A stretch of DNA of 32,000 nt, from the NCBI GenBank assembly GCA_047651235.1, contig CP178758.1, forward strand, positions 660,001 through 692,000. Reading direction: 5' to 3'. A program made the position numbers and the translations under genes. The notes under the pieces are model-generated. The model did not search any database. It was not told the origin of the DNA and saw only the letters and a list, made by a program, of their open reading frames with translations. Shown here in pieces: positions 5,151 to 28,831 of the stretch. The stretch comes from Candidatus Electrothrix yaqonensis. Lineage in GTDB: Bacteria; Desulfobacterota; Desulfobulbia; Desulfobulbales; Desulfobulbaceae. The stretch's first letter is position 1, and each line of letters opens with the position of its first letter.

Positions 5151-5571
5151 ATATTTTATTGATACCAATATCTTTGTCTACTCTTTTCAACGGGATGAAC
5201 CAGAAAAACAAAGTGTTGCCCAGAAGCTGATTCGGAATGCCCTGAAGGAACAGACAGGCTGCATAAGTTCTCAGGTCATACAAGAATTTCTGAATGTTGC
5301 CACGAAAAAGCTCAACCCTCCCCTGTCGCATCAGGAAAGTCTCAAATATCTGGATACAGTGCTGGCACCATTGTGCGAAGTGTTCAGCTCACTTGAACTG
5401 TACCATAAAACTATAGAAATCACAGAGCGATGGAAATACACTCTATATGATTCTATGATTATTACTGCGGCCTTGCAGGCCAATTGTGCCGTCTTGTATA
5501 CAGAGGATCTGCACCACGGGCAGCAGGTCGAATCTCTTGTTATTGAGAATCCTTTCCGTGCCGGATCATGA
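5140..5571 (+). CDS. vapC: PIN-domain ribonuclease toxin (VapC-type)
   Basis: 143 aa. Acidic PIN residues in the usual order: FIDTNIFVY (D), VIQEF (E), LYDSMII (D), YTEDL (D). Confidence 0.85.
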   Translation: MSDKYFIDTNIFVYSFQRDEPEKQSVAQKLIRNALKEQTGCISSQVIQEFLNVATKKLNPPLSHQESLKYLDTVLAPLCEVFSSLELYHKTIEITERWKYTLYDSMIITAALQANCAVLYTEDLHHGQQVESLVIENPFRAGS

Positions 5572-10972: not shown

Positions 10973-11163
10973 TCATTTAATAATGTTAAAAAGCTATATA
11001 GAAAGTAGCATTAGTGGCCTGACGCCTTCTTTTGTACTGATAGAGGCGGGCTGCAGTGCAGTTTTCGGGCAAACAGAATTCATTGATCATAAGTACCGAT
11101 ATTAACTCTATCCATTCATAAATTCATAACAATGGCAATGCTTATTCAGTAAGCAGGTGCTGT

Positions 11164-11298
11164 GCTTTCCGGTCGATGACGGAAAGCTGATAAAGCCACA
11201 ACCGCTGCGAGGCGGTGTCGGAAAGTCGCGGGTCTCCGCAGGGGAGACGGCCGGACTGCCTGCTTTTTATAAATCTATATACCGGGAGGTATGTTATG
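11164..11298 (+). promoter_or_regulatory. Structured 5' leader RNA, copy 1 (riboswitch-like; GEMM-I-like core, class unconfirmed)
   Basis: Three hairpins: 11164-11187; 11201-11216 with GCGA loop; 11232-11248. Conserved single-stranded blocks are shared with 18875-19010, with compensatory changes in the stems. The element ends at the SD and ATG of a short ORF. Confidence 0.6.
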
Positions 11299-11454
11299 CA
11301 ATCCGCCGAAACGGGGTTCACCCGATTCTTTCACTCCTGCCGTAATCATTCTCCTCCTTCCGTCCTGAAGAAAGAGCGTTTCTGCCGGAAGCGTTTACAG
11401 ACGGACGGCTTGGATATTATTCAACGCAACAACATAACGGAGGAAGAGAAGTGA
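11296..11454 (+). CDS. Short leader ORF (52 aa), possibly translationally coupled to the downstream gene
   Basis: GGGAGG SD 6 nt upstream of ATG 11296. Its stop overlaps the GTG start of the next gene (GTGA at 11451-11454). No recognisable domain. Confidence 0.35.
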   Translation: MQSAETGFTRFFHSCRNHSPPSVLKKERFCRKRLQTDGLDIIQRNNITEEEK

Positions 11455-14411
11455 AGACACATTGGTTTAAAACAGTACCGGTGACAGCCGGTCTGCTGCT
11501 GGGCTTCGGCCTGACGGCTGGCCCGGCCTTTAGCGAGGTGCAGTTTACGGACAGCGGGCAGATTCTGGGAAGCAATTATACTTGGGAGGCGGTGCTGGGT
11601 GATCTGGATGGTGACGGCGATCTAGATGCTTATTGTGCGAACGCTGGAACTCAACCCGACAAAGTATGGCTGAACGACGGAACGGGTATCTTCAGCGATA
11701 GTGGGCAGGCTCTTACTGGCAATCTGCACAGTGGTGCTGTAGCACTGGGCGATCTGGACGGTGACGGTGATCTGGATGCCTTTGTAGGTAAATCAAACTA
11801 CCTTACAGTGTTGATGAATGGCGGGACAGGCAGTTTTTCAGACACGGGACAGCGATTGAACAGTTACGGCACTCACGCTGTGGCACTGGGTGATGTGGAC
11901 GGCGACGGTGATCTGGATGCTTTTGCCGGAAGGTGGGGGCAGCCTACTCATGTATGGATGAATGACGGATCAGGCATTTTCACCGACAGCGGCCAGGAGC
12001 TGGGCGATTCGGGATCACTTGATTGTGATATCGAATTGAGGGATTTAGACGGTGACGGCGATTTGGATGCTTTCGCTGCGAATCATGGGACAAGCGGCAA
12101 TCCGGTCTGGCTGAACGACGGTGCCGGAAATTTTTCTCTCCACGCAAAGCTGGGCAACTTAAGCAGTCATAGCATTGCCTTGGGCGACTTGGATGGCGAC
12201 GGTAATCTGGATGCCTTTGTCGGAAATGTATATGATCCGGATCAAATATGGTTGGGAGACGGAGCAGGCAATTTTATCGATAGCGGCCAGAATCTTGGCG
12301 ACACAATGAGCCTTGAGGTTTCCCTGGCAGACCTAGACAGCGACGGCGATCTGGATGCTTATGTGGCGACCGGCAATATCTGGACCCGGCGTAGCGAGAC
12401 CGACAAGATTTGGCTGAACGACGGATCAGGTGTCTTTTCCGACAGCGGACTGCCTTTGGCATATGCGGCCAACAGTTCCATCCCGTTAGGTGATCTGGAT
12501 GGCGACGGTGATTTGGATGCCTTCAGTGCGGCCTATGGGAACAATGTGGCCTACGGGAACAATACGGTTTGGATGAATGAGTCGGATGGAGTTATTGTGT
12601 ATTACCCGCTGGACGGCAATGCGGAAGAAGCAAATAACAACGCATATGACGGGACAATTCACGGTGCCACGCCAACGACGGATCGTTTTGGTCAGACTGA
12701 CGGGGCAATGCACTTTGACGGAGATGACTATATTGTCACACCGTTTAATATGAGTCAGGAATTTTCGCCTTACGCTCCGGTAACCGTTTCTTTCTGGTTC
12801 AAAGTTGATCCGTCAGACGCTGCTCAGCAAAATACTCTCATTTTTGGTGGAGCCCCTGGCGGAGGCCCAGATTTTATGGCGGGGTTAAACAATGGTATTG
12901 TGAGGAGCAGACTGTACGGCGGTGCTCCGTTAGGAGAATCGGATACAACGTATGCCGATGGAGAATGGCACTATGTAGTATTTGGAAATTACGGCAGCGG
13001 AATCTATGATACCTATTTCTATATTGATGGGCAAAGGCAATCGAACACTCCTTCATTATATTATAATGGAAACGATGTCGGCGGTTACAATCGGGAGGAA
13101 CAGCTTACACTAGGATGCAGGGTCTGGAATTTTACGACTCCAAGTAATTTTTTTATCGGTGATATTGATGACTTTAAAATTTTCTATAATCCTTCACAAC
13201 AGGATGCCGACGAAGATGGTGTTGCAGATGACGAGGACAACTGTCCGAACGTAGCCAATGCAGATCAATCTGATGAAGACAATGACGGCATCGGTGATGC
13301 CTGCGATACCTGCGGGCAGGATCCGGAGAATGATGCGGACGGCGACGGCGTTTGCGGGGATGTGGATGTCTGTCCGGGACATAACGATGCTGTGAATGCT
13401 GACGGCGACAGTGCGCCGGACGGCTGCGATGCCTGCCCGAACGACCCGCAGAACGATGCGGACGGCGACGGAATCTGCGGGGATGTGGATACCTGCCCGA
13501 ACGATGCCGACAACGATGCGGATAACGACGGAATCTGCGGAGATATGGATACCTGTCCAAACGATGCTGCTAACGATGCGGACAACGACGGTGTCTGCGG
13601 GGATGTGGATGCCTGCCCGAACGATGCGGACAACGATGCGGACGGTGACGGAACCTGCGGAGATGTGGATACCTGCGCAAATGATCCTGATAACGATGCG
13701 GACGGCGACGGAGTCTGCGGAGATGTGGATATCTGCCCGAACGATGCTGCTAACGATGCGGACAGCGACGGAATCTGCGGAGATGTGGATGCCTGTCCGA
13801 ACGATGCGGATAACGATGCCGACAATGACGGAATCTGCGGAGATGTGGATGTCTGCCTGCTTGGTGATGATAATCTGGACACAGACGGCGACACAGTTGC
13901 CGATGACTGCGATGTATGTCCACTGGATATCGAGAATGATGCAGACGGTGACGGCATTTGTGAATCGGATGACAACTGCCCGACTCTGGCCAACACCAAT
14001 CAGTCGAACGTGGACGGCGACGAGTACGGCGACGCCTGCGAGCCTGACAATGACGATGACGGCGTGATTGATGATAACGACAATTGCCCGCTGGACGTCA
14101 ATGCCGATCAGGCGGACTACGACGGTGACGGTGTCGGCGACGTCTGCGATGCGGACACGGACGGCGACAACGTGATTGATGCGGATGATGTGTGTCTGGA
14201 AACGGCTGTGGGCGCACCGGTACTTGCCAACGGCTGCTCAGTGGATCAGGAATGCGTGTGTGAGGCGAAATGGAAGAACCACGGTGCCTATGTACGATGT
14301 AATGCACATGCCTGTGAGGATCTGGTTGATGCAGGTCTGCTCACCGAAGCGGAGAAGGACGCGATCATGTCCGAGGTCGGAGAATCTGACTGCGGGCATA
14401 AGAAGAAATAA
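11451..14411 (+). CDS. Large secreted protein: FG-GAP/VCBS repeats + LamG (concanavalin-A-like lectin) domain + thrombospondin type-3 Ca-binding repeats
   Basis: GTG start with GGAGGAAG SD and signal peptide (TAGLLLGFGLTAGPAFS). About 8 repeats centred on GDLDGDGDLDA(F/Y) and WLNDG(S/T)G.F. LamG-like block (GAMHFDGDDYIV...VSFWFKV...GEWHYVVF...IGDIDDFKIFY). More than 12 D-x-D-x-DG-x-C/D TSP3-like repeats. Confidence 0.9.
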   Translation: MKTHWFKTVPVTAGLLLGFGLTAGPAFSEVQFTDSGQILGSNYTWEAVLGDLDGDGDLDAYCANAGTQPDKVWLNDGTGIFSDSGQALTGNLHSGAVALGDLDGDGDLDAFVGKSNYLTVLMNGGTGSFSDTGQRLNSYGTHAVALGDVDGDGDLDAFAGRWGQPTHVWMNDGSGIFTDSGQELGDSGSLDCDIELRDLDGDGDLDAFAANHGTSGNPVWLNDGAGNFSLHAKLGNLSSHSIALGDLDGDGNLDAFVGNVYDPDQIWLGDGAGNFIDSGQNLGDTMSLEVSLADLDSDGDLDAYVATGNIWTRRSETDKIWLNDGSGVFSDSGLPLAYAANSSIPLGDLDGDGDLDAFSAAYGNNVAYGNNTVWMNESDGVIVYYPLDGNAEEANNNAYDGTIHGATPTTDRFGQTDGAMHFDGDDYIVTPFNMSQEFSPYAPVTVSFWFKVDPSDAAQQNTLIFGGAPGGGPDFMAGLNNGIVRSRLYGGAPLGESDTTYADGEWHYVVFGNYGSGIYDTYFYIDGQRQSNTPSLYYNGNDVGGYNREEQLTLGCRVWNFTTPSNFFIGDIDDFKIFYNPSQQDADEDGVADDEDNCPNVANADQSDEDNDGIGDACDTCGQDPENDADGDGVCGDVDVCPGHNDAVNADGDSAPDGCDACPNDPQNDADGDGICGDVDTCPNDADNDADNDGICGDMDTCPNDAANDADNDGVCGDVDACPNDADNDADGDGTCGDVDTCANDPDNDADGDGVCGDVDICPNDAANDADSDGICGDVDACPNDADNDADNDGICGDVDVCLLGDDNLDTDGDTVADDCDVCPLDIENDADGDGICESDDNCPTLANTNQSNVDGDEYGDACEPDNDDDGVIDDNDNCPLDVNADQADYDGDGVGDVCDADTDGDNVIDADDVCLETAVGAPVLANGCSVDQECVCEAKWKNHGAYVRCNAHACEDLVDAGLLTEAEKDAIMSEVGESDCGHKKK
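13311..13853 (+). repeat. In-frame 60-bp (20-aa) tandem repeat array encoding CPNDADNDADxDGxCGDVDx
   Basis: One unit at 13311-13370, one degenerate unit, then seven contiguous 60-bp units at 13434-13853. Confidence 0.85.
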
Positions 14412-14440
14412 CAGACTCTTTTAACAGATAATACTGAACA

Positions 14441-14470
14441 GGGCGGGGCCGTGAGGCTCCGCCTTTTTTG
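14441..14470 (+). terminator. Rho-independent terminator after the 986-aa gene
   Basis: GGGCGGGGCC-GUGA-GGCUCCGCC hairpin followed by UUUUUUGUU. Confidence 0.7.
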
Positions 14471-17397: not shown

Positions 17398-17474
17398 GAC
17401 ATCGGTTCTGAAAAAAGTTACCGTACCCCAAGATAACCTGCAGCTCATTTTGCTCAAGAAATAACAAAAAGGGT

Positions 17475-18477
17475 TAATTCTACTTTGGCACTCACAAAGG
17501 CTGTGGTAATAATTTGCAATTCGGTTGTTTCTCATATGCGAAATCAATCGAAGCTTGCCTCTTTTCATGCCGTTGACGAAGCTGTCTTATAACTTCATCT
17601 TCGTTTACATCTCGACGTGGAAGAATTGACTTGAGTAATGTTGTTATATCAGCGCAACTCAATAACGGGACACCGACTTGATGGTATAATCGTTGCTCGA
17701 CCATAAACAACATGGCCATCATGACCATAGTCATATGATGATGCCAAGCCAGCCATCCCCGAGCCTTAGCCTTAAGACAACGTTCCTTGTCATCCGTCCA
17801 GCTTTTCGGTAAATACAGCCGACAGTCGATCGGCGTTGAAAAGCGACCATATCCCAAAGTTGCAAACACTACTACTTGACAGTTGTCGGTTTTACCAAGC
17901 TGCCCGCACCATTGACGAGAAACCCCAACAGACATTTTACCCTTTTTGGGTATCCCGGATTCATCAATAAAAAGAGCGCTATCTTCCTTTCCTCCAAAAA
18001 TGTTATCCGCATCTTTAGCTACGTGGTTGTTTACAGGACGCCAATCCCAGTTCGATTCGGAAAGAAAATACTGGAGGGGCTCATATTTAACGCCCGGAAC
18101 CTTTTCCTCCATACGTTCCATGTTTTTTTGTCAGACTGGAATAAACCTTTCAAGTATTGGAATGCTTTATCTGACAAACTTACCGTATGTCTCTTAAAAA
18201 AATGATGATATCTTTCGTGAAAAGACGTAAGTTGCCGGGCGATGCCGGTCAACTCAAAGAATTTGTCATGGGGACTTCTTTTTTCGGGGCTGGGAGCGTT
18301 CATAAAAAGAATAAAGTTATAATCAGGGCGATTGACGGGTATTTTTTTGATAGCTGTTATCAGGTGCTATCTTGATCAAAAAGCGATAAAATCTTCCTAA
18401 TGAAAGATACAACTTTATCCGGATATTGCAAGAAGTTTTTACAAATAGATCAAAAGGTTATGGTTGACAAAGTAGAA
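17475..18477 (-). mobile_element. Defective IS701-family-like insertion sequence, copy A
   Basis: 1003 bp shared with 27626-28628 at constant offset 10,151, roughly 97% identity by eye. Imperfect terminal IRs: TAATTCTACTTTG... at the left and ...CAAAGTAGAA at the right. Boundaries +/- 3 bp. AT-richer than the surroundings. Confidence 0.8.
17492..18303 (-). pseudogene. IS701-family (COG5659-type) DDE transposase, frameshifted and internally deleted
   Basis: ORFs 18303->18031 and 18121->17492 join by a -1 shift at an A7 run (T7 at 18123-18129 on the + strand). The junction reads ...AFQYLKGLFQSDKK|NMERMEEKVPGVKYEPLQYFLSESNWDWRPV. LFIDESG (first D) is present. The sequence then passes from YLPKSWTDDKERCLKAKA directly to RGWLAWHHHMTMVMMAMLF, so the central catalytic region seems to be missing. 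Confidence 0.7.
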
Positions 18478-18874
18478 GTAACGGGGGCTTGTTTTAGAAG
18501 CATGTTTTTCAAACAGCTTCTCAGACAGGCTGCCATAAAAATTACGCATCCGCTTTTCTGTTTCGGGAGAATATGCCTGTATCTTCATGACCGAATGAGC
18601 ATAAACGCAACTATGAAATTCTCAATGACCTGTCAGCAAGTTCCGTAGTTATTAAATTTTCATTCCATATCAGCATGGAGCGGGATGATTCCGTAATTTC
18701 TGAGGCCAGAACCTCCATATGCACCCTTTACCAAGGGCACTTCTCCCGCTACCTTTCCATCCCCCTGTTCCGCAGTCTGCACCGCAAAAAACTTGACATT
18801 TTGTGCTCGTTAGAGTTACATGGAAGATACAGGGAGCTACTTCTCATCTTTGCACCAGTTCTCTGATATAATAT

Positions 18875-19010
18875 GCTTTCCGGGTAGAACAGAGCCGGAA
18901 AGCTGATAAAGCCACAGCCGTCGTGAGACGGTGTCGGAAAACCACGGGTCTTCCTGAAGGAGACGGCCGGGTTACCTGCTTTCACTCTTATAATCGGAAG
19001 GTGTGTTATG
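18875..19010 (+). promoter_or_regulatory. Structured 5' leader RNA, copy 2 (riboswitch-like; GEMM-I-like core, class unconfirmed)
   Basis: Hairpins at 18875-18903, 18917-18932 (GUGA loop) and 18948-18964, plus conserved blocks identical or near-identical to copy 1. Ends at the SD (GGAAGG) and ATG 19008. Confidence 0.6.
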
Positions 19011-19172
19011 CAATTCACATCAGAAGTAATCCACAGAAGCTTTATCTCCGCAGCAGCTTTTTTGTTTGCTGCTTCTTTTGCCGCTCAGGCAGTCACCGTT
19101 AACGCTCAGTATCAGCGACTGGAATCAGGACAATTAATCCTTTTCCCTCCACGTACAGGTGGGCAATTATGA
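19008..19172 (+). CDS. Short ORF (54 aa) with a signal-peptide-like N-terminus
   Basis: MQFTSEVIHRSFISAAAFLFAASFAAQA|VTVNAQYQRLESGQLILFPPRTGGQL. SD GGAAGG 6 nt upstream. Below the 60-aa cutoff of the ORF track. Confidence 0.45.
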   Translation: MQFTSEVIHRSFISAAAFLFAASFAAQAVTVNAQYQRLESGQLILFPPRTGGQL

Positions 19173-19368: not shown

Positions 19369-20568
19369 ATGAAAAATGCAGTTGTTGCTTTAGGGTTCAG
19401 TGTGCTGCTGATAAGCCAGCCGGCTTTTTCTGCAGAAGAGGAGGCTCCAGTGTCAACGGCGGATACGGTGCTTCCTTCTTCAGGTTCTGAAGGAAAATTT
19501 TACGACCGTGAACAGCTCATACAAACGCTCCTCGGTGATTTAAATGAGGAGGAGGATGGTACCGAAGAAACTGCAGATGATTCCGGAGAGGTTGCGGATG
19601 GTACCGAGGAAGCTGCAGATGATTCCGGAGAGGTTGCGGATGGTACCGAAGAAGCTGCAGATGATTCCGGAGAGGTTGCGGATGGTACCGAGGAAGCTGC
19701 AGATGATTCCGGAGAGGTTGCGGATGGTACCGAAGAAGCTGCAGATGATTCCGGAGAGGTTGCGGATGGTACCGAAGAAGCTGCAGATGACTCCGGAGAG
19801 GTTACGGATGGTACCGAAGACGCTGCAGATGACTCCGGAGAGGTTACGGATGGTACTGAAGAAACTGCAGATGATTCCGGAGAAGTTACGGATGATTCCG
19901 GTGATCCGGATGCTGAACAGCCCACGCAAGAACAGATCACGGCTTTTGTTGAAAAATTGTCCGATGAACAGGTCTTTGCCCTCAACCGTTCTTTGAACAA
20001 TGCTGTAAACAATGGTCTGCCGATGGCATACGATAAAATCCTGGAAAAAATTGTTGAGGAGAACTATGACGGCAGGCAGATTAATGCGCTGACCAAAGCG
20101 TTGGAGGAGGATGCCAAATTCCAGGCCCTGTATGAGAAGACTGGCAATGCCAAGTTTCTGGAACGGGCAGAACAGCAGAAAGAGAAATTTCTGTCAAAAG
20201 TAGACAGATTCCGAAATGACGACATGGAGAGTCCGCTGACAGAAGAACTGCAGGATATGGCTCAGGATACAGTCAAAGATATCTCCAAGGAGACTGCCAG
20301 AGAGGCAGCAAGAGAGATGGCAAAGGAATCTGCCCAGGAAAGCGCAAAGCAGGCAGCCCATGATGCAGTTAAAGAAAGCATTAAGGATATTGTCAAAGCG
20401 ACAAAGAAGGAGACCGTTAAGATAAAGCAGGCGGAGAGGAAAGCTGCCAGAGAGGCAGCAAAAGCGGAGAAAGTGAAACCGGAAAAACCTGGAAAGCCGG
20501 AGAAAGTGAAGTCGAAGAAGGAAAAGCCGGAAAAACCGGAAAAGGCAGAGAAGTCAGAAAAGGAATAA
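19369..20568 (+). CDS. Secreted acidic tandem-repeat protein with a Lys/Glu-rich C-terminus
   Basis: 399 aa with GGAGGG SD and signal peptide MKNAVVALGFSVLLISQPAFSA. Eight DGTEE(A/T)ADDSGEV(A/T) units, a helical charged middle, and KPEKPEK-type tail repeats. Confidence 0.8.
   Translation: MKNAVVALGFSVLLISQPAFSAEEEAPVSTADTVLPSSGSEGKFYDREQLIQTLLGDLNEEEDGTEETADDSGEVADGTEEAADDSGEVADGTEEAADDSGEVADGTEEAADDSGEVADGTEEAADDSGEVADGTEEAADDSGEVTDGTEDAADDSGEVTDGTEETADDSGEVTDDSGDPDAEQPTQEQITAFVEKLSDEQVFALNRSLNNAVNNGLPMAYDKILEKIVEENYDGRQINALTKALEEDAKFQALYEKTGNAKFLERAEQQKEKFLSKVDRFRNDDMESPLTEELQDMAQDTVKDISKETAREAAREMAKESAQESAKQAAHDAVKESIKDIVKATKKETVKIKQAERKAAREAAKAEKVKPEKPGKPEKVKSKKEKPEKPEKAEKSEKE
19555..19905 (+). 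repeat. In-frame 42-bp tandem repeat, 8 full copies plus a partial copy
   Basis: Units 19555-19596, 19597-19638, ... 19849-19890 are near-identical. Copies 2-5 alternate ACCGAGGAA / ACCGAAGAA. Confidence 0.9.
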
Positions 20569-26905: not shown

Positions 26906-27628
26906 ATGAAAACAACACGAAAAATCATTGAAATTGACGAAGACCTCTGCACCGGCTGCGGAGAATGTATCCCGAACTGTGCTGAAGGTTCCCTACAGAT
27001 TATCGACGGCAAGGCCCGACTGGTAGCGGATAAGCTCTGCGATGGCCTTGGTGCCTGTCTCGGCCACTGCCCGGTCGGGGCGCTGCAGATTATTGAGCGG
27101 GAGGCGGATGAGTTTGATGAAGAGGCAGTGGAACAATTCTTGAAGGAACAGAAAAAAGCGGCAGCAGGCAGCGGGTGTCCTTCTGCGCAGTTCAAAACCC
27201 TGCAGCCGAGTTCCTGCGAAACAGCCAATGAACCGGCTGCTCAATCCGGCAGTGCACTCAGCCATTGGCCGGTGCAGATCCGTTTGATTCCGCCCAATGC
27301 ACCCTTTCTGGAAAATTGCGATCTGCTGATTGCGGCAGACTGTACCGCTGTCGCCTACGGCAGCCTGCACCATGATTTCATCCAGAGCCGGGTTGTGATG
27401 ATGGGCTGCCCGAAATTCGATGACCAGCAGCTCTACGTGGACCGCTTTACCGAGCTGTTCAGAACCGGAAAACTCAATTCGGTGACTATGCTGATTATGG
27501 AGGTGCCCTGCTGTTCAGCCATGCTCCAGATCGTCAGAACCGCCTATGATCGGGCCGGGGCAGGCGTACCGGTACGGCAGGTTGTGGTTTCTACGCAGGG
27601 GCAGATTCTTGATGAGCGGAAGTGGTAA
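26906..27628 (+). CDS. 4Fe-4S dicluster ferredoxin-domain protein; the stop codon lies in the first 3 nt of IS copy B
   Basis: 240 aa with CTGCGECIPNC and CDGLGACLGHCP cluster motifs and a C-terminal domain containing GCPKFDD and MEVPCC. TAA at 27626-27628 is the first triplet of the repeat shared with copy A. Confidence 0.8.
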   Translation: MKTTRKIIEIDEDLCTGCGECIPNCAEGSLQIIDGKARLVADKLCDGLGACLGHCPVGALQIIEREADEFDEEAVEQFLKEQKKAAAGSGCPSAQFKTLQPSSCETANEPAAQSGSALSHWPVQIRLIPPNAPFLENCDLLIAADCTAVAYGSLHHDFIQSRVVMMGCPKFDDQQLYVDRFTELFRTGKLNSVTMLIMEVPCCSAMLQIVRTAYDRAGAGVPVRQVVVSTQGQILDERKW

Positions 27629-28628
27629 TTCTACTTTGGCACTCACAAAGGCTGTGGTAATAATTTGCAATTCGGTTGTTTCTCATATGCGAAATCAATC
27701 GAAGCTTGCCTCTTTTCATGCCGTTGACGAAGCTGTCTTATAACTTCATCTTCGTTTACATCTCGACGTGGAAGAATTGACTTGAGTAATGTTGTTATAT
27801 CAGCGCAACTCAATAACGGGACACCGACTTGATGGTATAATCGTTGCTCGACCATAAACAACATGGCCATCATGACCATAGTCATATGATGATGCCAAGC
27901 CAGCCATCCCCGAGCCTTAGCCTTAAGACAACGTTCCTTGTCATCCGTCCAGCTTTTCGGTAAATACAGCCGAAAATCAATCGGCGTTGAAAAGCGACCA
28001 TATCCCAAAGTTGCAAACACTACTACTTGACAGTTGTCGGTTTTACCAAGCTGCCCGCACCATTGACGAGAAACCCCAACAGACATTTTACCCTTTTTGG
28101 GTATCCCGGATTCATCAATTAAAAGAGCACTGTTTTTCCTCCCTCCTAAAAGTTTATCTGCATCTTTAGCTACTTGGTTGTTTACAGGACGCCAATCCCA
28201 GTTCGATTCGGAAAGAAAATACTGGAGGGGCTCATATTTAACGCCCGGAACCTTTTCCTCCATACGTTCCATGTTTTTTTGTCAGACTGGAATAAACCTT
28301 TCAAGTATTGGAATGCTTTATCTGACAAACTTACTGTATGTCTCTTAAAAAAGAGATGATATCTTTCATGAAATGACGCAAGTTGTGGGGCGATGCCGGT
28401 CAACTCAAAGAATTTGTCATGGGGACTTCTTTTTTCGGGGCTGGGAGCGTTCATAAAAAGAATAAAGTTATAATCAGGGCGATTGACGGGTATTTTTTTG
28501 ATAGCTGTTATCAGGTGCTATCTTGATCAAAAAGCGATAAAATCTTCCTAATGAAAGATACAACTTTATCCGGATATTGCAAGAAGTTTTTACAAATAGA
28601 TCAAAAGGTTATGGTTGACAAAGTAGAA
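27626..28628 (-). mobile_element. Defective IS701-family-like insertion sequence, copy B
   Basis: Same 1003-bp element as 17475-18477, in the same orientation, with the same A7 frameshift site (T7 at 28274-28280) and the same internal deletion. Confidence 0.8.
27643..28454 (-). pseudogene. IS701-family DDE transposase, frameshifted and internally deleted (copy B)
   Basis: ORFs 28454->28182 and 28272->27643 are collinear with copy A. Amino-acid differences are confined to a few short patches (e.g. NNQVAKDADKLLGGRKNSALL vs NNHVAKDADNIFGGKEDSALF). Confidence 0.7.
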
Positions 28629-28831
28629 TTAGGCAGCAGAGGTGCCCCGATCTTGGCATCGTTCTGTCGTGTATTTTCCAGCTCAACGATGTACGCTCCA
28701 TTGTCAAGTTCCCGGAGGGACGGTTGCTCAAATTCGTAAACAACACTGTATTCTCCTGCAATCAGGGACGCAGGGAATGCCAGCATGAAAAGGACCGTTC
28801 CGATAATACTACGTAACCAATTTTTTGCCAT
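28629..28831 (-). pseudogene. N-terminal fragment (~67 aa) of an exported protein, truncated by IS copy B
   Basis: AAGGAGA SD and signal peptide MAKNWLRSIIGTVLFMLAFPASLIAG, then EYSVVYEFEQPSLRELDNGAYIVELENTRQNDAKIGAPLLP. The reading frame then runs into the IS right end. Confidence 0.55.

Follow-up and report, generated by a model that had tools for sequence, protein, structure and literature searches.

Results

Two copies of a structured leader in the Electrothrix window

The window, by which we mean the whole 32,000-nucleotide (nt) stretch of Candidatus Electrothrix yaqonensis DNA that was analysed (contig CP178758.1, positions 660,001 to 692,000), contains two leader RNAs of ~135 nt, located at 11164-11298 (copy 1) and 18875-19010 (copy 2). 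Both occupy a 5' leader position on the same strand, with a Shine-Dalgarno (SD) sequence and an AUG 28-32 nt past the aptamer described below. We are nearly certain that the two segments are paralogous class I cyclic di-GMP (c-di-GMP-I, or GEMM-I) riboswitches, each in the 5' leader of an operon for secreted proteins.

A first-pass annotation had proposed that a structured cis-regulatory leader RNA occurs twice in this DNA, and direct reading located every element it had listed at the coordinates it gave. An upstream hairpin of the common form GCUUUCCG(G)/(C)CGGAAAGC has a loop of 8 nt in copy 1 (GCUUUCCG-8 nt-CGGAAAGC) and of 11 nt in copy 2 (GCUUUCCGG-11 nt-CCGGAAAGC). It is followed by the 20-mer GGAAAGCUGAUAAAGCCACA, which does not differ between the copies, and by a GNRA-capped hairpin (ACCGCU-GCGA-GGCGGU in copy 1, GCCGUC-GUGA-GACGGU in copy 2) in which pairing survives three changes, one of them a double compensatory exchange (C-G to U-A) and the other two confined to one strand. 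The block GUCGGAAA, a GUCUCC/GGAGAC hairpin and the segment GGCCGG..CCUGCUUU, 5' of the SD and AUGCAAU, are likewise present in both. A MAFFT alignment matched the copies well and their flanks, which are unrelated, poorly. In a repeat search of the window, 11180-11266 and 18896-18982 formed a two-copy family with a gapless core of 87 nt and 80% identity, and a degenerate 33-nt core pattern gave two matches in the window and none in 100 shuffles. The conserved leader of copy 1 begins further upstream, at ~11134, with an additional hairpin that has no equivalent in copy 2.

The leaders contain c-di-GMP-I aptamers

When the whole window was searched with cmscan against Rfam 15, three matches in total reached the gathering thresholds, one tRNA (1112-1185) and two c-di-GMP-I RNAs (RF01051, GEMM-I). 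The aptamer of copy 1 spans 11185-11263 (51.1 bits, E = 2.4e-07) and that of copy 2 spans 18901-18979 (56.7 bits, E = 1e-08), both on the plus strand, above the gathering threshold of 35 and over positions 1-87 of the 87 in the model; RF01051 is the best clan member for each. The c-di-GMP-I riboswitch class was described in 2008, and the leaders belong to this known class and are not a new RNA. The first-pass annotation had foreseen that a strong match to an existing Rfam family would take away the novelty and leave the feature in place, and this is what the scan returned: the novelty that it had implied is lost, and the structured leader stands.

The elements read by eye map onto the aptamer fold. 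The GNRA-capped hairpin is the first arm, here called P2 (11201-11216 in copy 1, with a GCGA loop), and the long P3 arm (11224-11257 in copy 1) ends in the GUCUCC hairpin. The segment GGCCGG..CCUGCUUU runs from the 3' strand of P3 through the ligand-contact nucleotide C92 into the 3' strand of P1. The upstream hairpin lies outside the aptamer and forms part of the expression platform. The numbering of Vc2, the RF01051 type example from Vibrio cholerae, was placed on the model columns by our own mapping of the Vc2 sequence, and was consistent at all three contact positions. In the model alignment, G20, A47 and C92 correspond to 11195, 11222 and 11259 in copy 1 and to 18911, 18938 and 18975 in copy 2. 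The ligand of Vc2 is contacted by all three, by G20 through a Hoogsteen interaction with G-alpha, by C92 through Watson-Crick pairing with G-beta, and also by A47 (PMC6140456, PMC5888326). RNAs of the GEMM-Ib group selective for cyclic GMP-AMP (cGAMP) have A in place of G20 (PMC6140456).

Conservation was assessed in 36 leaders, both window copies included, which were aligned with MAFFT without structural input (alignment A2); 17 leaders with the P0 hairpin described below made up a second alignment (A3). Since the Rfam model and structure-blind alignments were used, the alignment was not fitted to the structure under test. Unless stated otherwise, the family values given below refer to the 36 leaders. 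The RF01051 fold is kept by compensation: P2 is 100% paired, with double changes at four of its six pairs, and P3 is 93.4% paired, with double changes at four pairs, compared with 37-51% in slid controls for the aptamer helices. Loops, and the linker from the P1 3' strand to the SD, vary freely in length. The stems named in the first-pass annotation are thus real helices that covary, and its description of a structured cis-regulatory leader RNA was right; substitutions that break the stems, which it had named as evidence that would speak against it, are not what the homologues show, as substitutions in the 36 leaders preserve pairing. Positions 20, 47 and 92 read G/A/C in 34 of the 36 leaders and G/A/U in the other two, with G at position 20 in every one. 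By score, fold, ligand-contact nucleotides and leader position, both window copies are members of RF01051, and from these nucleotides the ligand is very probably c-di-GMP.

An anti-Shine-Dalgarno segment lies upstream of the aptamer

The expression platform can be described by four segments, with the consensus sequences GCUUUCYGG (A), CYGGAAAGY (B), CUGCUUU (C) and ACCRGGAGG (D). Segment A is a pyrimidine-rich anti-SD located 5' of the aptamer that can pair with either B or D. Segments B and C are the two strands of P1, B the 5' and C the 3' strand; B doubles as the 3' arm of the A:B hairpin, and D is the SD region. In copy 1 they read CUGUGCUUUCCGGU (A, 11160-11173), CGGAAAGCUG (B, 11180-11189), CUGCUUUU (C, 11260-11267) and ACCGGGAGGUAUG (D, 11281-11293), all on the plus strand, and D complements A over 12-13 base pairs (bp). 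The equivalents in copy 2, also on the plus strand, are AUAUGCUUUCCGG (A, 18871-18883), CCGGAAAGCUG (B, 18895-18905), CUGCUUUC (C, 18976-18983) and UCGGAAGGUGUGU (D, 18994-19006), and here the minimum free energy (MFE) structure of 18871-19017 pairs A with D over 13 bp.

Across the family, 92.6% of cells are paired in A:B and 82.6% in B:C (P1), the latter with a conserved U.U mismatch and with variation at pair 61-140 (UG 23, UA 6, CG 5). The core of A:D is 90% paired, one of its pairs occurring as U-A in 15 leaders, C-G in nine and U.G in six; in the 17-leader set the value rises to 95.8% (U-A 9, C-G 6). The covarying D column is no simple mirror of B, and a control confined to A:D gave 88.5% pairing compared with 31-61% when slid. 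RNAduplex energies were -13.6 kcal/mol for cognate A:B and -12.4 kcal/mol for cognate A:D, with shuffled partners at about -7, and cognate duplexes were better than non-cognate ones (A:B, p<0.0005; A:D, p=0.0075). RNAduplex gave no signal for an A:C pairing. Pairing of C with D was tried as a mask of the SD in the free state and rejected, its -5.8 kcal/mol being no gain over the -5.4 of shuffled sequences. A motif RUGUUAUG is conserved around the start codon in most leaders (A2 columns 188-197; window 11291-11298 and 19003-19010). Its first AUG or GUG lies 1 nt past the SD and inside the A:D helix, and its second AUG, at normal spacing, is likely to be the start codon.

A terminator scan found no intrinsic terminator between 11263 and 11296 or between 18979 and 19008, and the platform would appear to control translation and not termination. 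Availability of the anti-SD is predicted to depend on P1, as A competes with the remainder of P1 for its 5' strand, an arrangement that corresponds to translational control by sequestration of the SD.

The two alternative folds are close in energy. Forcing P1 and forcing A:B gave structures that differ by 0.6 +/- 3.2 kcal/mol over the family and by 0.3 and 0.2 kcal/mol in the two window copies; without constraints, copy 2 already adopts the fold with A:D and P1 as its MFE structure, and copy 1 adopts the A:B fold. With P1 and the aptamer helices as the only constraints, in imitation of the bound state, the SD paired with A in the MFE structures of 31 of the 36 leaders. The cost of opening the region from the SD through the AUG was 5.7 +/- 1.4 kcal/mol with A:B formed and 9.1 +/- 2.7 kcal/mol with P1 formed, a mean rise of 3.4 kcal/mol, and was higher in the P1 state in 31 leaders (Wilcoxon p=5e-8). 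For the ribosome-binding site of copy 1 the cost rose from 8.2 to 14.4 kcal/mol in the P1 state, and for that of copy 2 from 7.0 to 12.8 kcal/mol.

Copy 1 has an additional upstream layer

The additional hairpin of copy 1, P0 (GGCA-A-UGCUUA / UAAGCA-GG-UGCU), occupies 11134-11161 on the plus strand and is present in the MFE structure of 11130-11305. It is conserved in the 17 A3 leaders, with 62-78% of cells paired, and the transcript probably begins with it or close to it. Its 3' arm is an element Z (AAGCAGGU, 11151-11158, plus strand) that complements C' (GCCUGCUU, 11258-11265), the 3' end of the aptamer, which spans both C92 and the P1 3' strand. Z, with the consensus AGCRGGUGC and the partner UURCCUGCUU, occurs in copy 1 and in about two-thirds of the family; copy 2 has neither P0 nor Z. 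The Z:C' duplex scored -12.6 kcal/mol in RNAduplex and is 94.1% paired in the 17 leaders, compared with 30-65% when slid; pair 62-196 varies (UA 7, UG 7, CG 3), and another pair has one U-A exchange. Z:C' can form together with A:B and is incompatible with P1 or A:D. Three folds of 11130-11305 lie within 2.5 kcal/mol of each other, namely P0 with A:B (-64.8 kcal/mol), Z:C' with A:B (-64.2 kcal/mol) and P0 with P1 and A:D (-62.3 kcal/mol). In the last of these only P1 was forced, and P0 and a 12-bp A:D helix arose unforced.

Upstream of copy 1, a candidate sigma-70-type promoter that a consensus scan had missed lies at 11102-11130 (TTAACT-17 nt-CATAAC). Sister leaders have a conserved block CATAAC-AA(A)UGGCAA 5' of P0; transcription would then start at the base of P0. 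A sigma-54-like reading of the conserved TGGCAAT 5' of copy 1 was rejected, as the spacing is wrong and the sequence is better explained as the 5' arm of P0. An extended -10-like sequence, TGATATAAT, lies immediately 5' of the A segment of copy 2.

The leader is a lineage-specific paralogue family in cable bacteria

Species-representative genomes were scanned with the core pattern AAAGCCANA...GUCGGAAA, which had been validated on the window, and at least 112 loci were recovered. The variant of the aptamer core found here (GCC.ACA...GUCGG) is widespread. The complete leader, consisting of the upstream hairpin, the same P2, a short P3, CCUGCUUU, ACCRGGAGG and an AUG 28-43 nt past the aptamer, was found at least 40 times in about 12 genomes, with several copies per genome, and among the matches listed it is confined to Ca. 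Electrothrix, Ca. Electronema and related metagenome-assembled genomes (MAGs) of Desulfobulbaceae. The whole leader is a member of a large lineage-specific family of paralogues. When 19 leader loci were scanned again with Rfam, every leader matched the c-di-GMP-I clan. In non-cable relatives, reading of the loci showed mostly terminator platforms that overlap the 3' strand of the aptamer. The clpB gene of the window shares 79.6% nucleotide identity with its counterpart in Ca. Electronema aureum GS, and there too clpB is followed by a leader.

Several members of the set deserve separate description. Desulfobulbaceae MAG S01.Bin068 has two complete leaders with 231 nt between them (L177:640-1088); they are separate units and not tandem aptamers, and each lies 5' of a small Cys-containing open reading frame (ORF) with a signal peptide. 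The U at position 92 was found, among the 36 leaders, only in two sister leaders that keep G20 and A47, one in Ca. Electrothrix laxa (L137:3156-3234) and one in Desulfobulbaceae MAG S24.Bin023 (L164, ~5400-5480, minus strand); the local sequence in the two leaders is GGGUUGUCUGC. Their upstream Z element is altered along with C92U (AAAGCGGGCGGC), and both leaders lie 5' of a secreted family of 122-124 aa. The substitution may reflect an altered ligand specificity, or merely a G.U wobble to the ligand. A cobalamin riboswitch was also detected, in Ca. Electrothrix gigas (L109:2906-3090, minus strand, 129 bits).

Genes downstream of the two leaders

The statement in the first-pass annotation that both copies precede genes for exported proteins holds only in part. 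The first ORF after copy 1 (11296-11454, plus strand) has 52 codons, no signal peptide and no Pfam match, and its stop overlaps the GTG start of the next gene (GTGA). This gene (11451-14411, plus strand) encodes a 986-aa exported protein with FG-GAP, Laminin_G_3 and TSP3-repeat matches in Pfam, and is likely the gene regulated by copy 1; the terminator scan placed a terminator-like site 3' of it, at 14440-14465. Within the gene, 13272-13982 consists of tandem in-frame repeats with a 60-nt period.

Behind copy 2 lies an ORF of 54 codons that encodes a signal peptide (19008-19172, plus strand). It is a truncated remnant, the first 35 residues of which match the N-terminus of a 373-aa Electrothrix protein (L184) at 60% identity. 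Because it is frameshifted and then stopped, its +1 frame reading ISDWNQDN* where the L184 protein has NDWNLETD, we regard it as what is left of a secreted family found behind Electrothrix leaders. An exported acidic-repeat protein of 399 aa is encoded 200 nt past this ORF, and a TPR/outer-membrane barrel protein follows. Tandem in-frame repeats with a 21-nt period, of the acidic GTEE/ADDSGEVAD type, occupy 19462-19965 in the gene for the 399-aa protein.

Elsewhere the family is found 5' of genes for CAP-domain proteins, for a C10 peptidase with an inhibitor domain, for small Cys-containing ORFs with signal peptides and for several secreted families without Pfam matches. Leaders of the copy 1 type (L123, L163, L173, L099, L127 and L138) are followed by short ORFs of 41-96 codons, with a large gene after them. 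These short ORFs are poorly conserved and lack a signal peptide, and several begin with M(R/S)(S/T)LFHSS; they may be chance ORFs, encode leader peptides or act as coupling devices.

Discussion

The model that we favour is a c-di-GMP-I riboswitch with a translational OFF platform. In the free RNA, the A:B hairpin would form, leaving the SD comparatively open and translation on; in copy 1, Z would in addition pair with the 3' end of the aptamer and cover C92. Binding of c-di-GMP would lock P1 (B:C) and free A, which could then pair with D as an outward extension of P1, while in copy 1 Z would return to hairpin P0. The SD would be masked and translation would fall. In the case of copy 1, the 986-aa gene would follow the 52-codon ORF by translational coupling or polarity. 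The OFF direction is a computed one; A, the sole strong, covarying partner of the SD, is freed only when B is taken by P1. We consider this explanation as a whole moderately probable, and the OFF direction, which derives from modelled folds, only a shade less so.

Several points weigh against this explanation. Taken alone, the A:D covariation is of moderate significance, its score being reached by 4 of 500 shuffles, and the same applies to Z:C', for which the control gave 10 of 500. The covariation statistics ignore kinship, and the leaders are paralogues with a common ancestry. A pyrimidine-rich segment such as A matches any SD to some degree. P1 alone, with its U.U mismatch, reaches -5.5 kcal/mol, no better than shuffled sequences. 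A weak local hairpin, ACC-RGGA-GGU, still holds part of the SD in the MFE structures of the A:B state (on average 3.7 of 5 nt paired); the ON state may not be fully open, and this hairpin may be an alternative cause of the conserved ACC. Copy 2, which lacks Z and P0 and lies 5' of a degraded gene, may be a relic. Lastly, high c-di-GMP is usually expected to promote adhesion, and an OFF switch for adhesin-like exported proteins runs counter to this.

That last expectation would be met if the same riboswitch acted with the opposite sign, c-di-GMP turning expression on, for example because the ligand-free fold masks the SD or is degraded and the ligand restores translation or mRNA stability. The regulated proteins are exported and adhesin-like, which suits activation at high c-di-GMP, and the partial pairing of the SD in the A:B state points the same way. 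ON switches are common among c-di-GMP-I riboswitches, Vc1/gbpA being one example (bioRxiv 10.1101/617340), and in non-cable relatives from our scan (for example L101, L107 and L114) the terminator overlaps the 3' strand of the aptamer, which predicts an ON switch. However, no element was found that masks the SD specifically in the ligand-free state, C:D pairing included, and the one segment that covaries strongly with the SD is released only when P1 takes B. An ON switch therefore seems rather unlikely to us.

Departures from this riboswitch identity fare less well. The aptamers could sense another ligand, either 3',3'-cGAMP, as in the GEMM-Ib RNAs of Geobacter, or whatever the GGC and UAU variants recognise. 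Riboswitches for cGAMP occur in the Desulfobacterota (PMC8835794), the phylum of the host; several sister leaders score marginally best with RF03167 or RF03168, some just above the thresholds of these variants (59.4-63.3 compared with 59 for RF03167, 66.8-67.7 compared with 65.9 for RF03168), and two sister leaders have the U at position 92 noted above. The window copies, however, have RF01051 as their best clan member and carry no variant's defining change. The cGAMP class needs A at the position of Vc2 G20, which is G in both copies. In c-di-GMP-I-GGC (RF03167), G replaces A47 and the model consensus is GACGC-G-AA, where the window has GUCGG-A-AA, and in c-di-GMP-I-UAU (RF03168), U replaces both G20 and C92, where the window copies have G and C. 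Recognition of a different ligand is thus quite improbable. The repeat might also be protein-coding or the end of a mobile element and not a regulatory RNA at all: mechanically called ORFs overlap both copies (those at 11157-11345 and 11215-11454 among them), and the window contains a 1012-nt insertion sequence (IS)-like repeat with a DDE_5 transposase fragment (17469-18480 and 27620-28631). The IS-like repeat, however, ends 395 nt 5' of copy 2 and has no sequence in common with the leader, the flanks of the two copies are unrelated, and the covariance-model matches are full-length and above threshold, with pairing kept in 36 homologues that differ in their loops and linker. A coding or mobile origin, which the first-pass annotation had already set aside, is contradicted by these data and can for practical purposes be dismissed. 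The two copies of the IS-like repeat are 97% identical and contain 209-aa ORFs on the minus strand; one of them lies between clpB and riboswitch copy 2.

Compared with Vc2, the c-di-GMP-I leaders described here share P1, the GNRA-capped arm, the long P3 arm and G20, A47 and C92, and like RF01051 members in general they lie in the 5' untranslated regions of genes for exported 'environment and membrane' proteins. The predicted mode of action is shared as well: after the ligand has stabilised P1, the ribosome-binding site would be masked and translation repressed. Vc2 represses translation of tfoY in this way, its ribosome-binding site being masked when P1 forms (bioRxiv 10.1101/617340; Inuzuka 2018, cited in PMC11705072), and the class I switches of C. 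difficile are reported to be mostly OFF (bioRxiv 10.1101/617340). There are also differences. The inner junction of the window copies is C-G, C-G (GCC...CGG), whereas the RF01051 consensus is G-C, C-G (GGC...GC), and P3 is short. The anti-SD precedes the aptamer and has the 5' strand of P1 as its decoy, while the sequence opposing the ribosome-binding site of Vc2 is described as downstream of the aptamer. A further difference from Vc2, found in copy 1 and not in copy 2, is the upstream Z element able to pair with the 3' end of the aptamer, C92 included.

The GEMM-Ib riboswitches of Geobacter (for example Gs1761) have the same fold, are likewise found in Desulfobacterota and also occur in many copies per genome 5' of genes for extracellular and cell-surface proteins; they differ in having A where the leaders of cable bacteria have G. 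RF03167 and RF03168 share a very similar scaffold, but their variant-defining nucleotides are absent from the window copies. The terminator-type c-di-GMP-I riboswitches of other Desulfobacterota and Proteobacteria share the core pattern used in our scan. In these (for example L097, L101, L107 and L114), the complement of the aptamer 3' strand comes directly after it and leads into a U-run, which makes an intrinsic terminator; the window copies have no such terminator and instead combine a nearby SD and start codon with the upstream A:B hairpin.

For riboswitch biology, the leaders add new members to a well-known class and provide a well-supported case of an anti-SD placed upstream of the aptamer. 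We found no paper linking cable bacteria with riboswitches or with c-di-GMP in the literature searched, the coverage of which was incomplete, and a lineage-specific expansion of c-di-GMP-I in cable bacteria together with an upstream anti-SD platform may be new. The finding changes no major open question, and its interest is modest. A broader reading, which we put forward tentatively and with somewhat less confidence than the OFF switch itself, is that cable bacteria have expanded this riboswitch in a lineage-specific manner on one translational platform, so that c-di-GMP would directly control much of their secreted and periplasmic proteome. The same reading includes the Pfam-less families within that proteome, and a second upstream element that could unzip the ligand pocket in many of the leaders; the two C92U members, L137 and L164, might respond to a different dinucleotide.

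To our knowledge, cable bacteria have neither been obtained in pure culture nor been manipulated genetically, and it is for this reason that the leaders would be useful there: if the assignment is true, they flag by sequence alone a set of genes that responds directly to c-di-GMP. The flagged genes encode secreted proteins of unknown function, CAP-domain proteins, a C10 peptidase and FG-GAP adhesin-like proteins. As compact RNA parts, the leaders could also serve as c-di-GMP reporters. For the organisms themselves, they would offer testable hypotheses on how filaments switch among surface attachment, gliding and growth.

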